A stretch of DNA of 64,000 nt from a candidate division TM6 bacterium UASB124 (lineage in GTDB: Bacteria; Babelota; Babeliae; Babelales; RVW-14). Of this stretch, positions 53,352-58,770 are shown one piece after another (position 1 is the first letter of the stretch; the number at the start of each line of letters is the position of its first letter). Made by a program: the position numbers and the translations under genes. The stretch is from positions 23,992 to 87,991 of the forward strand of contig CAMDFF010000002.1 in the NCBI GenBank assembly GCA_945897315.1. The letters run 5' to 3'. The notes under the pieces were generated by a model. It had not been told where the DNA came from, searched no databases, and saw only the letters and a list, made by a program, of their open reading frames with translations.

Positions 53352-54289
53352 GATACAAATTGCCTGAAGTAATCGATTGTTTTTTTGAGTCCGGTGGGTA
53401 AGTTCACCGTTGGCTGCCAATTGAGCAGTTGTTTTGCTAGGGTAATATCTGGTTGTCTGCGTGTTGGATCATCTTCTGGAAGGGGCATCATGACAATGTT
53501 GAGCTTACGGCCAAGTACGCTCTCAAGAGTTTCTACCAGCTCTTTGAGTGTAAACTCGATGGGGTTGCCCAGATTAATTGGTCCAGCGACTGAAACATCA
53601 CTCTGCATCATAGCCATAATTCCATTAATTAAATCATCAACATAACAAAATGAGCGCGTTTGGTTGCCTGTGCCGTACAGTGTAATGGGCTCGCCACGCA
53701 GTGCTTGCATAATAAAGTTGCTTACCACGCGACCATCAAGCGGGTCCATGCCAGGGCCGTACGTATTAAAAATACGAATAACTTTAATATCGAGGTTGTG
53801 CATGCGTTTATAATCGAAAAAAAGTGATTCGGCTACGCGTTTGCCTTCGTCATAGCATGCACGAGGACCCGTGGTGTGCACATTGCCCCAGTACTGTTCC
53901 GTTTGCGGGTGCTGCAGAGGGTTGCCGTATACTTCGCTGGTAGACGCTTGCATGATGCGAGCGCTATTTTGATGGGCAAGCTCGAGCATGTTGAGACTAC
54001 CCATAAAATTTGTTTTTGCTGTAAAAATAGGATCTTTTTGATAGTGCGGAGGCGATGCAGGGCACGCAAAATTAAAAATCCAGTCGCAGGATATGTCTAG
54101 CGGCTGAATGATGTCATGCTCGATAAAAGTGAATTGAGGATGGTTAACGAGTTCCTGTATATTGTGCATGCGGCCTGTGTAGAAATTATCAATTCCGATG
54201 ACATTGAAGCCATCAAGAATTAATCGCTTGGATAAATTACTGCCTAAAAAACCGGCAGCACCTGTGACGAGAACTTTTTTACTTTCCAT
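53348..54289 (-). CDS. uxs: UDP-glucuronate decarboxylase (UDP-xylose synthase), SDR family
   Basis: KKVLVTGAAGFLGSNL...IGIDNFYTGRMHNI...FIEHDIIQPL and YDEGKRVAESL are near-colinear with UXS enzymes as I remember them. Confidence 0.8.
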   Translation of the reverse strand: MESKKVLVTGAAGFLGSNLSKRLILDGFNVIGIDNFYTGRMHNIQELVNHPQFTFIEHDIIQPLDISCDWIFNFACPASPPHYQKDPIFTAKTNFMGSLNMLELAHQNSARIMQASTSEVYGNPLQHPQTEQYWGNVHTTGPRACYDEGKRVAESLFFDYKRMHNLDIKVIRIFNTYGPGMDPLDGRVVSNFIMQALRGEPITLYGTGNQTRSFCYVDDLINGIMAMMQSDVSVAGPINLGNPIEFTLKELVETLESVLGRKLNIVMMPLPEDDPTRRQPDITLAKQLLNWQPTVNLPTGLKKTIDYFRQFVS

Positions 54290-55535
54290 CGTGTTCCATA
54301 CTTTGTTTTAAGATTGTTTTGTATGCTTGCGCGAGGACGGGAGCAACGACATCTTTCATAGTTGTCAGCTCTTCTTCTTCAATGATGACACGTATCTCGG
54401 TGCCGTGAATGTCTGGATTTGTTGCATACTGTTCAGTGAGATTGGCAGAGTCATCTGTGATGCCATACGGGGGAACCTTCCAACAGCCACCTAGAATATG
54501 TACCGTTACTTTTCCGCATTCATGAGTCATTAAAAAGATAATGCGCATTGTTGGTTCATAGACTATATTTTCATACGTGACTTTTTGCGATGGGACAAAT
54601 TCACTGATGATACAATGTGTATCTTTGCTTGTTCGCCAATAGCCTATGCTTTTTGTCTCTTTGGGAGCGAATGGGGTAGTGCCAAATAGGTGCTGTAGGT
54701 GGGTATTAAGGTTCTCAGCGGCTACAACACTTACTCCGCGAGCGCGTGACTGATTGAGTGGTTTAATAATAAACATCGCGGTGGAGGGGAAGCGTGCGAT
54801 TATTTCCTGTGCGAGTTTCTGATTGTAGCGCGCAGGGTAAATGGCGTAATCAGGAATGTAGTTATGCAGTCCAGCATCTTCAAATAATCTATAGGTAGCG
54901 TCTTTGCTATGAAAGTATCTGCTGCTGAGGCTATTAATCAGAACAAAGTGTAGAAAATTATTACTGAAGGCAGAAAATACTGGGGACTGTTGACTGTTGC
55001 GACTTGGTGCTCGGTAGAGGACAATGCCCGTGTGCTCGCGAATAGTTTTTGGTTTTGGAAGAGGGATGTTTTTATGAATGTCGGGGCCAAGTGCTGCGAT
55101 TAAATTGTCAAAGGTGCTTGGGCGGTGCTTGTCGTGTGGGGGCCGCAAAAATGGTTGAAATGATTGGAATGGTAGTTGGCCTACAAACCAGACTGGCAGT
55201 TTGTAGGTGTTGAGCAGATGTTCAATAATGCTCCAATACGGAGTTTCTTGAGTACATTCTTTATTGTTGATGTAGATAGAGTGTCGGCGTATGCCTGAAT
55301 GCTGGCCATTGCCACATTCAATAATTTTAAAGGTGCCGTGGTTGTACTTGATATCGGCAAGCCCAAGTGTAATATCTGCAGGAGCGTTTTCTAGCTCTTT
55401 ATTAAAACTAACATAGGCGCTATTGGCTATTGCCTCAAAATCATGAGGCGAGAGTATTGTTTCTGTTGTGCTGCCTAACAAGTTGCTAAACGATAGGAGC
55501 GTCAAAAATACAGGTGAGATGATGATAGTTTTCAC
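54279..55535 (-). CDS. ATP-grasp-like (TTL-like) protein, paralogue A, hydrophobic N-terminus
   Basis: 418 aa. ADIKYNHGTFKIIECGNG; FIIKPLNQSRARGVSVV; SEFVPSQ...YEPTMRIIFLM...VHILGGCWKVP. The fold call is from motif layout only. Confidence 0.5.
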   Translation of the reverse strand: MKTIIISPVFLTLLSFSNLLGSTTETILSPHDFEAIANSAYVSFNKELENAPADITLGLADIKYNHGTFKIIECGNGQHSGIRRHSIYINNKECTQETPYWSIIEHLLNTYKLPVWFVGQLPFQSFQPFLRPPHDKHRPSTFDNLIAALGPDIHKNIPLPKPKTIREHTGIVLYRAPSRNSQQSPVFSAFSNNFLHFVLINSLSSRYFHSKDATYRLFEDAGLHNYIPDYAIYPARYNQKLAQEIIARFPSTAMFIIKPLNQSRARGVSVVAAENLNTHLQHLFGTTPFAPKETKSIGYWRTSKDTHCIISEFVPSQKVTYENIVYEPTMRIIFLMTHECGKVTVHILGGCWKVPPYGITDDSANLTEQYATNPDIHGTEIRVIIEEEELTTMKDVVAPVLAQAYKTILKQSMEHDGK

Positions 55536-55566
55536 AGCAATTAACTTTCATATAAAAACAGAATTT

Positions 55567-56838: not shown

Positions 56839-57516
56839 TTATTTTTTTTCACAAACATGAAAACAATGAACATACGTAGTTTTTGCCAATGCATCATGAA
56901 CATTGCGTATATTATTTTTTAAATCATCAAAGAATAATATACGCTTAGGCATGATGTTCGATTCAGCTAAAAATGCTTTCAGTACCGTACCCTTGGAGTG
57001 GTGCCCGCTTAAAATGATGCCCTTCGTAAAACTTGGGTGTGGCTTAGGTATTCTGACGAGCAGAAAAGATTCATTCTTCTGATCAAAACTAAACGTAAGG
57101 TTTAGGTTATTCATCATATTTAAACGCCATTGCTCCATGCTGGGAATAATGCCAAATGTGCCCGTGCGCGTGTGAGTGAGCGCAACAATTGGAACACGCT
57201 TGTCATGTAATTCTTGAAAAAGCTGTGGCAGTGTAGGATCGAGTAATACGAATTGTCTCATAATCATCTGCTGATCAAGTTGTTGTGCAAGCAGCTTTTT
57301 TGGCAAGCGGTGATGTTTAATCAGTGTATTGTCAATGTCGCAAACAACTAAATCTGTTTCGCTGAGATCAGGATATTGTACAAGTCCTTCACGAACAGAG
57401 TGGACTTTCGTTATGATCGCTTGAATCGGTGTTGGTATGATTAAAAGTGCTAGAGCGCAGGTAGCAAGGGTGCTAAGTTTTTTGAGATGTGTCATGGTAA
57501 TTTCTCCTTTTGTCAC
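56839..57516 (-). CDS. HAD-superfamily hydrolase-like protein with signal peptide
   Basis: HAD motif I is VVCDIDNTLI. A Thr motif (VALTHTRTG) and an acidic motif (ILFFDDLKNN) follow. N-terminus is LSTLATCALALLIIPTPIQA. Confidence 0.55.
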   Translation of the reverse strand: MTKGEITMTHLKKLSTLATCALALLIIPTPIQAIITKVHSVREGLVQYPDLSETDLVVCDIDNTLIKHHRLPKKLLAQQLDQQMIMRQFVLLDPTLPQLFQELHDKRVPIVALTHTRTGTFGIIPSMEQWRLNMMNNLNLTFSFDQKNESFLLVRIPKPHPSFTKGIILSGHHSKGTVLKAFLAESNIMPKRILFFDDLKNNIRNVHDALAKTTYVHCFHVCEKK

Positions 57517-57558
57517 AAGTGTGCCATAGGAGAATAGATATGCATAGAGGAGCCAGTA

Positions 57559-58770
57559 ATGAAAATAATAGTACGTGTGATGAGAGCGTTTCTTGTTTAC
57601 TCAGCAGTAGTGATTGGCTTATGCGCGCAGATGGTGCCAGTGCCTCTGCGTAAAAACTATCCGTGTGATATTTCATTTATGATTGTTGATTTAAAATACG
57701 ATGTTGGGCGGCTCAAGGTTTGTGAATTTGGGATGGGTTGTCTATCAGGTTTTGTTGGCCATGAACGGTTGTATGGCGCTGGCAAAATATGGGAAGGGTG
57801 GTGGTCGTTTGTGCATACTTTTGGTAAGCCACTGATATTTGTTGCCCGATCAGGCCCTACCAGATCCTTTCAGGAGCTATCTGTGCCACACAAGGATAAG
57901 AAAAAAGATAAAATGGCCTTACAAAAAATGTTTACATTGCCAGGGATAAGGGTTGCAACATTGCAGGATGGCCTTAAGGCTCTATCGCTGACCAAGCATT
58001 ATGGGGAAGGCTTTCAAGCAATTGCGATGAAAACAGAACCGCGCGAGCTCTTTGAGCAGTATGCAGCATTGGGGGAGGGTGAAACAGGTGTTATTGCTGT
58101 TGATTATGCAACATCGTCTTTTGCTTTGAACAAATTGTATATGCATACTCTATTCGTCAATGACCCGGCTGTAGCACGATATCGCCCACAATGTCGGCTT
58201 TTATATAAAAATAATGTTGTGCAAGATCTTGAAACTATTAATGCAATAATGCCTGCTGATGCGTATGTGATTAAGCCGATCAATGCGTGGAAAGGCGAAG
58301 ACATTCAGATGTCGCTTGCGTGTGATCTGGTCGAAACAAGCAAAAATATATTATGGAAAAATAGAACGTGTATGTTTATTGAAAGTTTAGAGCATTCAAT
58401 GCCGATAATAGTTGATGCCAAGCCGTACGATGCGACAATGCGAGTTGCATTGGGATTGGCTTATGATCAAGGCAACGTGACGATGAAAGTGCTTGGGGCA
58501 TACTGGAAGCTTCCAGTTGAGCCACTAACAGAGCAAGTATCGCTGCTGGGATCATTTTTATCACGTATTTGTAAAGGGGGCAGAACGAGCTCCGCTATCG
58601 TTGATAGCAAGACATTGGCTGGTGTCTCGTATCAGCTAGCACAGTTTATGCCACATGTGTACAAAAAAATGGTAGCACTCAAGCACAGTCATATCCCATT
58701 GCAGGAGCTTGTCTCAGTCATTGATGGTACAGCTGACGCAGCCCTTATAAAACGACTGGAAACATTATGA
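57559..58770 (+). CDS. ATP-grasp-like (TTL-like) protein, paralogue C (most divergent)
   Basis: 403 aa. VDLKYDVGRLKVCEFGMG; YVIKPINAWKGEDIQM; YDATMRVALGL...MKVLGAYWKLP. Confidence 0.45.
   Translation: MKIIVRVMRAFLVYSAVVIGLCAQMVPVPLRKNYPCDISFMIVDLKYDVGRLKVCEFGMGCLSGFVGHERLYGAGKIWEGWWSFVHTFGKPLIFVARSGPTRSFQELSVPHKDKKKDKMALQKMFTLPGIRVATLQDGLKALSLTKHYGEGFQAIAMKTEPRELFEQYAALGEGETGVIAVDYATSSFALNKLYMHTLFVNDPAVARYRPQCRLLYKNNVVQDLETINAIMPADAYVIKPINAWKGEDIQMSLACDLVETSKNILWKNRTCMFIESLEHSMPIIVDAKPYDATMRVALGLAYDQGNVTMKVLGAYWKLPVEPLTEQVSLLGSFLSRICKGGRTSSAIVDSKTLAGVSYQLAQFMPHVYKKMVALKHSHIPLQELVSVIDGTADAALIKRLETL

Follow-up and report, generated by a model that had tools for sequence, protein, structure and literature searches.

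A stretch of 64,000 nt from the genome of the candidate division TM6 bacterium UASB124, a protist-infecting member of the Babelales (contig CAMDFF010000002.1 of assembly GCA_945897315.1, forward-strand positions 23,992 to 87,991; hereafter the window), is chromosomal DNA, as judged from the presence of rpoD, dnaG and htrA, and carries a cluster of four genes whose products begin with signal-like segments. Three of them encode paralogues of a family of putative permuted ATP-grasp ligases, here called A (54279..55535, minus strand, 418 aa), B (55567..56817, minus strand, 416 aa; the copy used for structure modeling) and C (57559..58770, plus strand, 403 aa; the most divergent of the three); the fourth, located between B and C, encodes a HAD-like protein (56839..57516, minus strand) of 225 aa, or 218 aa when counted from the start of the public gene call. 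BLASTP aligned A with B at 32% identity across 389 residues (E-value 2e-72), A with C at 22% identity (E-value 3e-16) and B with C at 24% identity (E-value 3e-14), so the paralogy of the three proteins far exceeds chance. The three colinear paralogous open reading frames (ORFs) had been described in an original prediction made from the bare DNA; its coordinates were right, and the conserved blocks quoted there were found verbatim.

No Pfam or NCBIfam model covers this family. A, B and C gave no Pfam match at E-value ≤ 1, so that none of the curated ATP-grasp profiles was matched significantly, and their NCBIfam matches were far below threshold (17.5 and 10.4 bits, the former to a D-Ala-D-Ala ligase (Ddl) fragment, for which the cut-off is 457); a literature search found no paper on the family, and the statement of the original prediction that no characterised orthologue can be recognised was borne out. 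Among 38 relatives, the only Pfam families matched by several members were ATPgrasp_ST (PF14397, sugar-transfer-associated) and ATPgrasp_YheCD (PF14398), with 7 and 8 sub-threshold matches, respectively, and with one relative, P0048, passing the PF14397 cut-off (38.8 vs 31.4 bits); a few relatives matched GSH-S_ATP, ATP-grasp_3/4 or RimK. ATPgrasp_ST has the theme of polysaccharide loci in common with A, B and C, but the three proteins themselves match neither ATPgrasp_ST nor ATPgrasp_YheCD at E-value ≤ 1. With the family alignment of 38 sequences as input, the AlphaFold2 model of B reached a predicted local distance difference test (pLDDT) score of 93.6 and a predicted TM-score (pTM) of 0.90. 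Foldseek compared this model with the PDB at a probability of 1.0 and reported 42 matches at E-value ≤ 1e-3, every one of them an ATP-grasp protein: ranks 1-5 were taken by eukaryotic glutathione synthetases (GS; E-value 2.6e-9 to 1.5e-7, 417-438 aligned columns), followed by nematode GS-like effectors, DcsG, ArgX/LysX, glutathionylspermidine synthetase (GspS), the structure 3n6x and many Ddl enzymes, while the highest target-normalised TM-scores belonged to ArgX/LysX (0.51). Because the profile matches of the relatives, the model of B and the Foldseek results point the same way, the assignment of the predicted structure to the three-domain ATP-grasp fold is solid, and the fold call of the original prediction was right.

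The more specific label, similarity to the tubulin-tyrosine ligase (TTL) family, was weakly supported. The family profile found the tubulin polyglutamylase TTLL7 (4ylr) as the best match among PDB sequences (E-value 6.7e-4, ~80 residues ending just past the K-P strand), TTLL7 has a similar acidic-x-R strand, and giant-virus TTL-family proteins, together with Ddl, were on top of the fold search against a viral library (E-value ~1e-4). On the other hand, neither A, B and C nor the 38 relatives match the Pfam TTL profile (PF03133), and no TTL protein is present among the 50 PDB fold matches listed, so that the family shows up in fold searches of the viral library only. Moreover, TTL enzymes are not permuted and carry their Mg-binding E-x-N element at the C-terminal end, whereas the acidic hairpin of B is N-terminal. 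The TTL flavour of the fold is thus weak, and membership of A, B and C in the TTL family was rejected, as the Pfam and NCBIfam scans returned no usable match.

The order of the structural elements in B indicates a circular permutation, in which the last ATP-grasp element, the Mg-binding β-hairpin, has been relocated to the N-terminus. In the model only helices follow the W-K-x-P strand (residues 346-357) and no β-hairpin is found past residue 357; a long N-terminal hairpin, formed by strands 54-65 and 68-76, bears the residues D61, K63, E73 and G75. The Pfam ATP-grasp profiles align with the family by their first halves only (e.g. positions 14-157 of the 278 positions of ATPgrasp_ST). Eukaryotic glutathione synthetases are the textbook example of circularly permuted ATP-grasp enzymes, and the Foldseek alignments with them extend over 417-438 columns, as compared to ~306-330 columns for the non-permuted LysX, DcsG and Ddl. 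Mean-field direct-coupling analysis (DCA) of 194 family sequences recovered known hairpin registers as controls (57-77, 59-75, 64-70; 339-352; 258-274, 259-273) and revealed an antiparallel ladder (62-334, 62-336, 60-338, 58-338) as well as further couplings (66-321, 65-318, 64-396, 72-394, 69-390). Among the top 100 couplings, those leaving the segment 45-113 lead in 22 cases to residues 318-416, in 6 to the N-domain and in 3 to the central domain. Owing to this ladder and these counts, the D61/K63/E73 hairpin is placed in the catalytic sheet as a strand pair beside the T333-M-R335 strand. It coincides with the first of the blocks listed by the original prediction (B residues 54-77; 56587..56658, minus strand; invariant D61, K63, E73 and G75), whose likely identity, by motif order, as the relocated Mg-binding hairpin had been overlooked there.

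Among known enzymes, the eukaryotic-type GS (human 2hgs/8fbz, yeast 1m0w) are the best Foldseek matches to B, and the alignment takes in the N-terminal segment. In these enzymes the Mg-binding E-x-N element lies ahead of the K-P ATP-binding strand; judging from the whole-chain alignment of the model and from the placement of residues 45-113 in the catalytic domain by DCA, B would have the same permuted topology. The similarity is nonetheless remote (identity 8-12%, TM-score ~0.4), and neither A, B and C nor the 38 relatives match the Pfam profiles GSH_synth_ATP and GSH_synthase. Unlike eukaryotic GS, the window proteins have signal-like N-termini, E-x-G in place of E-x-N and invariant motifs of their own (A-D-x-K-Y, Y-D-P-T-M-R and W-K-x-P); they come from an intracellular bacterium, where their genes form part of a glycan locus. 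Bacterial permuted ATP-grasp proteins and glutathionylspermidine synthetase (3n6x, 2io7) are structural matches too (E-value 1e-5 to 5e-6, ~417-446 columns), with no match of A, B, C or the relatives to the corresponding Pfam profiles CP_ATPgrasp and GSP_synth; proteins of the 3n6x/2io7 type are cytoplasmic and belong to other operon types.

Conservation of the putative active site was counted over 195 diverse family members (B numbering), and residues were assigned to the canonical positions of DdlB, TTL and GS by motif order and the enzymology of these proteins, not by superposition. The N-terminal hairpin retains D61 in 191, K63 in 190 and E73 in 191 members; K214 is kept in 190, K261-P262 in all 195, G270 in 194, S320 in 192, D331 in 185, T333 in 189, R335 in 194, W356 in 189 and K357 in 186, and the hinge follows the pattern h-h-[VI]-E-E-[YF]. 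The h-h-K-P strand with its loop (B residues 257-270; 56008..56049, minus strand; K261-P262 and G270) and the Y-D-P-T-M-R and W-K-x-P strands (B residues 330-359; 55741..55830, minus strand; R335 and K357) correspond to the second and third blocks of the original prediction. Both the Lys of the h-h-K-P strand and a second Lys/Arg for the ATP phosphates, as expected for ATP-grasp enzymes, can be mapped by motif order. The key residues are D61, K63, E73, G75, K211, K258-P259, E327, T329, R331 and W352-K353 in A, D61, K63, E73, G75, K214, K261-P262, D331, T333, R335 and W356-K357 in B, and D44, K46, E56, G58, K192, K239-P240, D291, T293, R295 and W316-K317 in C; A and C thus keep the residues listed for B, with one conservative D-to-E substitution in A and with Asp at the position of G270 in C. 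The putative ATP-binding Lys, the putative Mg-binding acidic residues and the hinge are therefore all kept in the three paralogues, and the one departure from the canonical set concerns the Asn of the E-x-N motif, whose position is occupied by Gly in 178 of the 195 members, by Gln in 5 and by Asn in 4. In homologues from metagenome-assembled genomes (MAGs) with a Legionellaceae or Chlamydiae label, E73-x-G75 is replaced by E-x-Q, which supports the mapping of the E-x-N motif. Because every mapped catalytic residue is kept in three copies, A, B and C are most likely active, and because their close structural neighbours are all carboxylate-amine ligases, they would most likely act as ATP-dependent enzymes of that class, via an acyl-phosphate.

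All four proteins start with hydrophobic segments, in agreement with the secretion-type N-termini noted in the original prediction: MKTIIISPVFLTLLSFSNLLGS in A (55470..55535, minus strand), MIFFIAIISLIVSTDTAFC in B (56761..56817, minus strand), MKIIVRVMRAFLVYSAVVIGLCAQ in C (57559..57630, plus strand) and MTHLKKLSTLATCALALLIIPTPIQA in the HAD-like protein (57418..57495, minus strand). A crude hydropathy test found a hydrophobic N-terminal segment in 160 of 198 family sequences, and an uncharged run, which begins near residue 6 and has a median length of 13 residues (interquartile range 12-15), was found in 148 of 195, i.e. about 76-81% of the family have signal-like N-termini. The net charge averages +1.6 ahead of the run and -0.3 over the 15 residues after it, and numerous runs terminate in A-x-A-like sites (e.g. 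TAQA|HETY, ALNA|HDTY). This n/h/c-like architecture, with its charge bias, is predicted to be that of cleavable Sec signals: a run of ~13 residues is too short for a transmembrane helix, which makes a membrane anchor unlikely, and the positive charge on its N-side predicts that the domain resides outside the cytoplasm. A lipoprotein reading was considered and rejected, as the residues ahead of the Cys in B and C misfit a lipobox. ATP-grasp ligases are normally cytoplasmic. The original prediction had remarked that a ligase behind a Sec signal makes sense only if the segment is a membrane anchor or if the protein acts in a place containing ATP, and the latter fits the distribution of the family among obligate intracellular bacteria as well as the import of ATP from the host in Chromulinavorax destructans, a cultured member of Babeliales, for which Sec is the presumed route of effector export and which has predicted signal peptides on 44% of its coding sequences and on 78% of its ankyrin proteins (PMC6561590).

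The family is large. A word-indexed search returned ~50 relatives, while an exhaustive profile search detected at least 822 representative clusters (at 50% identity) at E-value ≤ 1e-3, 355 of them at E-value ≤ 1e-30, nearly all matched over the full length. A pattern scan of species-representative genomes yielded 24 loci, with taxa taken from the record labels: eight are from Candidatus Babeliales, eleven are labelled 'uncultured Pseudomonadota', 'bacterium' or 'uncultured bacterium', and the scan also returned a Legionellaceae MAG (L021), two Chlamydiae MAGs (L022, with two family copies 0.8 kb apart, and L024), a 1.87-Mb chromosome of a gammaproteobacterium (L023), a Proteobacteria MAG whose copy is flanked by TPR repeats (L027) and a weak match in Micavibrio (L029). 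The family thus occurs chiefly in Babeliales (Dependentiae), and also in MAGs labelled Chlamydiae and Legionellaceae; the informative labels are mostly those of obligate intracellular bacteria, the weak Micavibrio match being the exception. Tandem arrays hold up to five copies (in the Babeliales or unlabelled MAGs of L013, L014 and L015, three to five paralogues are packed into 4-10 kb), a sign that the family has expanded rapidly at these sites. Among the ten longer members scanned, six contain ankyrin repeats (P0070, P0082, P0089, P0122, P0152 and P0193), in the order signal-like segment-ankyrin-ATP-grasp in all of these except P0082, which is devoid of a signal-like segment; the copy flanked by TPR repeats (L027, 7257-8900) has no signal either, and in P0037 a signal-like segment and the ATP-grasp domain are followed by a C-terminal GT2 glycosyltransferase domain. 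In the Chlamydiae MAGs the family gene adjoins a gene for a protein with a Fic-type motif (HPFxxGNGR; HPFTNGNGRYAR; L022, 6981-7691, and L024, 5063-5749, both on the minus strand), which has a signal-like N-terminus and, by its motif, would be another ATP-using, seemingly exported enzyme.

The DxDxT-containing HAD-like protein that the original prediction placed between the paralogues is a member of the DUF2608 family (PF11019; E-value 5.7e-18, 65.7 bits, cut-off 22.6) within the HAD superfamily. It also matches the NCBIfam model HAD-IIIC (E-value 9e-6) and, more weakly than DUF2608, acid-phosphatase models, and the nucleophile motif is intact, as read from the sequence (D60-I-D62-N-T64; 57325-57339); a PDB sequence search gave nothing meaningful.

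Analysis of the genomic neighborhood places A, B, C and the HAD-like protein in a locus of glycan enzymes. A single tight minus-strand run from 57516 down to 45228 comprises the genes for the HAD-like protein, B, A, a UDP-glucuronate decarboxylase-like epimerase/dehydratase (UXS; 53348..54289, minus strand, no signal), four glycosyltransferases (GTs), a UDP-glucose 6-dehydrogenase (UGD; 47252..48643, minus strand, no signal), another GT4 and a methyltransferase. A divergent plus-strand run, which starts 42 bp from it, consists of C, a GT4 (58767..60182, plus strand, with a hydrophobic segment behind a basic N-terminal extension) and a GT2 (60204..61157, plus strand, with a signal-like N-terminus). 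UXS begins within the last 11 nt of A, and the start of the GT4 overlaps the stop codon of C by 4 nt. Downstream of the GT2 gene follow a Sulfotransfer_1 protein (61208..62173, minus strand) with the signal-like N-terminus MKLKSHILLLLQLFTAGTLLHA|DS, a bifunctional 3'-phosphoadenosine-5'-phosphosulfate (PAPS) synthase (ATP-sulfurylase plus adenosine-5'-phosphosulfate kinase; 62342..64000, plus strand, running past the end of the window) that likewise has a signal-like N-terminus, a further GT2 and a GT10. The locus of a relative, L003, keeps DUF2608, three paralogues, UXS, UGD and GT genes, and in 8 of 9 loci the B-like homologues have GT or sulfotransferase genes around them. Signal-like N-termini are present on the C-adjacent GT4, the GT2 proteins, the sulfotransferases, the GT10 and the PAPS synthase, and are absent from UXS, the UGD of the window and the other GT4 proteins; because of this division the locus appears to encode one cytoplasmic and one exported set of enzymes.

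We propose, with a probability of roughly 0.45, that A, B and C are exported, permuted ATP-grasp ligases that tailor a glycoconjugate with the use of host ATP. The three ligases, together with the HAD phosphatase, the GT2, GT4 and GT10 enzymes, the sulfotransferase and the PAPS synthase, would be exported by Sec. The ligases would then act beyond the bacterial cytoplasm and draw on host-derived ATP, be it within a compartment of the host or within a periplasm whose metabolites are in equilibrium with those of the host; we infer such a use of ATP because the parasite lives in a host and imports its ATP. Their likely task here would be the tailoring of a uronic-acid-containing, sulfated glycoconjugate, for instance the amidation of glucuronate carboxyls, and the three paralogues may stand for three substituents or steps. 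The circular permutation, which is rare, the extent of the family and its phyletic pattern, and the putative export signals on a whole set of nucleotide-dependent enzymes of the locus are new here.

Several observations weigh against this proposal. It starts from what is observed, namely the paralogy, the fold, the conserved residues, the signal-like N-termini, the position in an operon and the phyletic spread, and adds to them a ligase chemistry and a substrate that are suggested by the fold class of a predicted structure. Enzymes dependent on nucleotide sugars, PAPS or ATP would be unorthodox outside the bacterial cytoplasm, and the lack of signals on UGD, UXS and the four GT proteins of the operon means that a conventional cytoplasmic pathway is also there. 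About 45% of the window genes pass the crude signal test, which is a high baseline; at such a rate a signal-like N-terminus is common in this organism, where host-directed proteins ordinarily bear one. Most members of the family have Gly where the canonical Mg-binding Asn is expected. The copies labelled Chlamydiae, Legionellaceae and the like (L021-L024) have no neighbours matching the GT, sulfotransferase, UGD or UXS proteins of the window, and the HAD gene adjoins only the closest orthologues, so that HAD adjacency as a trait of the whole ATP-grasp family was rejected. As to the permutation, a de-permuted profile (residues 25-113 or 45-113 moved to the C-terminus) matched the PDB neither over a longer stretch nor better, the Pfam matches of six de-permuted members were neither lengthened nor improved, and a de-permuted AlphaFold model from 3 sequences was unusable (pLDDT 36.5); since these sequence-level tests were uninformative, the permutation rests on the model of B, the Foldseek ranking and coevolution.

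The main rival, to which we assign a clearly smaller share of probability, is that A, B and C are effectors secreted into the host cytosol, where they would resemble TTL/TTLL, RimK or LysX in attaching amino acids to proteins of the host (or of the bacterial surface), in which case the position in the glycan locus would be incidental or reflect co-regulation of exported factors. This is close to the second hypothesis of the original prediction, TTL-like modification of host proteins. The best PDB profile match of the family (TTLL7, E-value 6.7e-4), the lead of giant-virus TTL proteins in the viral fold search and the top target-normalised TM-score of ArgX/LysX (0.51), which modify carrier proteins, are in its favour, as are the ankyrin repeats in 6 of 10 longer relatives and the TPR-flanked copy, which hint at protein substrates. 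The labels Babeliales, Chlamydiae and Legionellaceae are those expected of host-interaction genes, and the tandem arrays of up to five copies and the signal-bearing Fic-type neighbour (HPFxxGNGR) in Chlamydiae-labelled MAGs likewise agree with it. A, B and C themselves, however, have neither ankyrin nor TPR domains, their translation is coupled to that of UXS and a GT4, and the B-like subfamily is found consistently in glycan loci; furthermore, the PF03133 profile is not matched, TTL is missing from the 50 PDB fold matches listed, and no route across the outer membrane was identified. The ankyrin and TPR fusions and the non-glycan contexts in the Chlamydiae- and Legionellaceae-labelled MAGs favour effectors for parts of the family, while for A, B and C the operon coupling leads us to favour the tailoring of a glycan.

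Less probable still is a location at the cytoplasmic face of the membrane, where an uncleaved N-terminal anchor would hold the ligases and, together with the HAD protein, they would amidate glucuronate on a lipid-linked glycan. The precedent is the Campylobacter jejuni pair Cj1438/Cj1435, in which an ATP-grasp amidoligase fused to a GT2 uses ethanolamine-P or serinol-P and a HAD phosphatase acts afterwards (PMC11800379); the original prediction had drawn the same parallel in its first hypothesis, a glucuronamide pathway next to ugd. The layout is indeed alike, with an ATP-grasp ligase, a HAD phosphatase, a UDP-glucose dehydrogenase and a GT2 in a polysaccharide locus, and a GT2 fusion is common to the glucuronate-amidating ligase Cj1438C and to P0037 of the present family. 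Moreover, the ligases share an operon with the presumably cytoplasmic UGD, UXS and GT4, and ATP, UDP-sugars and PAPS are usually cytoplasmic. Cj1438C is, however, a TupA-like ATP-grasp domain C-terminal to its GT2, for which PMC11800379 mentions neither a signal peptide nor a permutation; homology to it (residues ~449-776) was rejected, as hhalign gave a probability of 0.1-0.2% with the family profile either native or de-permuted, and none of the 38 relatives match the Pfam profile ATPgrasp_TupA. In addition, the ~13-residue runs are too short for a transmembrane helix, their N-side positive charge predicts a C-out orientation, numerous runs end in AxA-like sites, HAD adjacency is limited to the closest orthologues, and the relatives with ankyrin fusions or in non-glycan contexts misfit. 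We therefore regard the Campylobacter system as a good functional analogy and not as a homologue. The observation behind the original prediction and its fold call were right, but neither its TTL label nor either of its two specific hypotheses is proven: for the glucuronamide one, the UGD/HAD/GT2 context fits but homology to Cj1438C is undetectable and the HAD link is narrow; for the host-protein one, the fused relatives fit but the window proteins lack such domains.

It is least probable that A, B and C are no ligases at all but ATP-grasp-fold kinases of glycans or small molecules, with the HAD phosphatase as their counterpart, or else binding proteins whose catalytic function has been altered: the replacement of Asn by Gly in E-x-N in most members, the existence of kinases among ATP-grasp folds, including two L. 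pneumophila effectors termed 'ATP-grasp kinases' from models (PMC11696984), and the phosphatase gene next door would agree with this, but the close structural neighbours are all carboxylate-amine ligases (GS, GspS, DcsG, LysX/ArgX, Ddl) with no inositol or lipid kinase among them, and the strict conservation of D61, K63, E73, K261, R335 and K357 argues against pseudo-enzymes.

Extending the proposal of exported glycan-tailoring ligases to the whole locus, we speculate, and consider it rather doubtful, that Babeliales possess a 'Golgi-like' two-compartment glycan pathway, in which cytoplasmic UGD, UXS and several GT4 enzymes would be complemented by an exported set of GT-A/GT-B glycosyltransferases, PAPS synthase, sulfotransferases, HAD phosphatase and permuted ATP-grasp ligases operating on host ATP, nucleotide sugars and sulfate. 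If true, no class of bacterial ATP-dependent ligases acting outside the cytoplasm would be known before this ATP-grasp family, which would be common to three unrelated obligate intracellular lineages. The family, which appears to be exported, suggests that ATP drives ligation reactions in the periplasm or inside the host, which would be possible only because the parasites bathe in host ATP. For Dependentiae, Chlamydiae and Legionellales it may provide a large reservoir of candidates, either for effectors or for enzymes that tailor surface glycans, and the similar signals on the PAPS synthase, the sulfotransferase and the GTs make the site at which the parasites assemble their surface or host-directed glycans a concrete, testable question. 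A literature search on DUF2608, on ATP-grasp proteins in Dependentiae and on signal peptides of glycosyltransferases found nothing relevant.

Several minor observations concern the glycan enzymes. The ORF of the GT4 adjoining C has a basic extension of ~70 residues ahead of its hydrophobic segment (58767-59050 of the window), while its homologues in other loci begin directly with a signal-like segment. Translation may thus truly start at an internal codon, or else the product is a type-II-like membrane protein. Across Babeliales loci, signal-like N-termini recur systematically on enzymes that require ATP, PAPS or nucleotide sugars, among them the C-adjacent type of GT4, GT2, GT10, Sulfotransfer_1 and the bifunctional PAPS synthase (58767-64000 of the window; L001, 363-4476; L003, L004, L006-L010, L018, L020 and L026). 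A homologue of UDP-glucose dehydrogenase in L009 (10505-11929, minus strand) has a signal-like extension, MKLRVLLVAISVLTSNVIYAS, ahead of its Rossmann GxGxxG motif. In two genomes a gene of the Mur ligase family lies a few kb from the glycan/ATP-grasp loci (L003, 912-2357; L004, 2811-4250). Elsewhere in the window, the sigma-70 factor RpoD (1424-3877, minus strand; 817 aa) has an N-terminal extension rich in lysine, and two tandem paralogous transporters of the Na_H_antiporter family (PF03553) are encoded at 12183-15652 (plus strand). The region 15911-19510 (minus strand) encodes a DabA (PF10070, E-value 8e-202) and Proton_antipo_M pair, i.e. a DAB-type complex for the uptake of inorganic carbon, which is unexpected for a host-dependent parasite.

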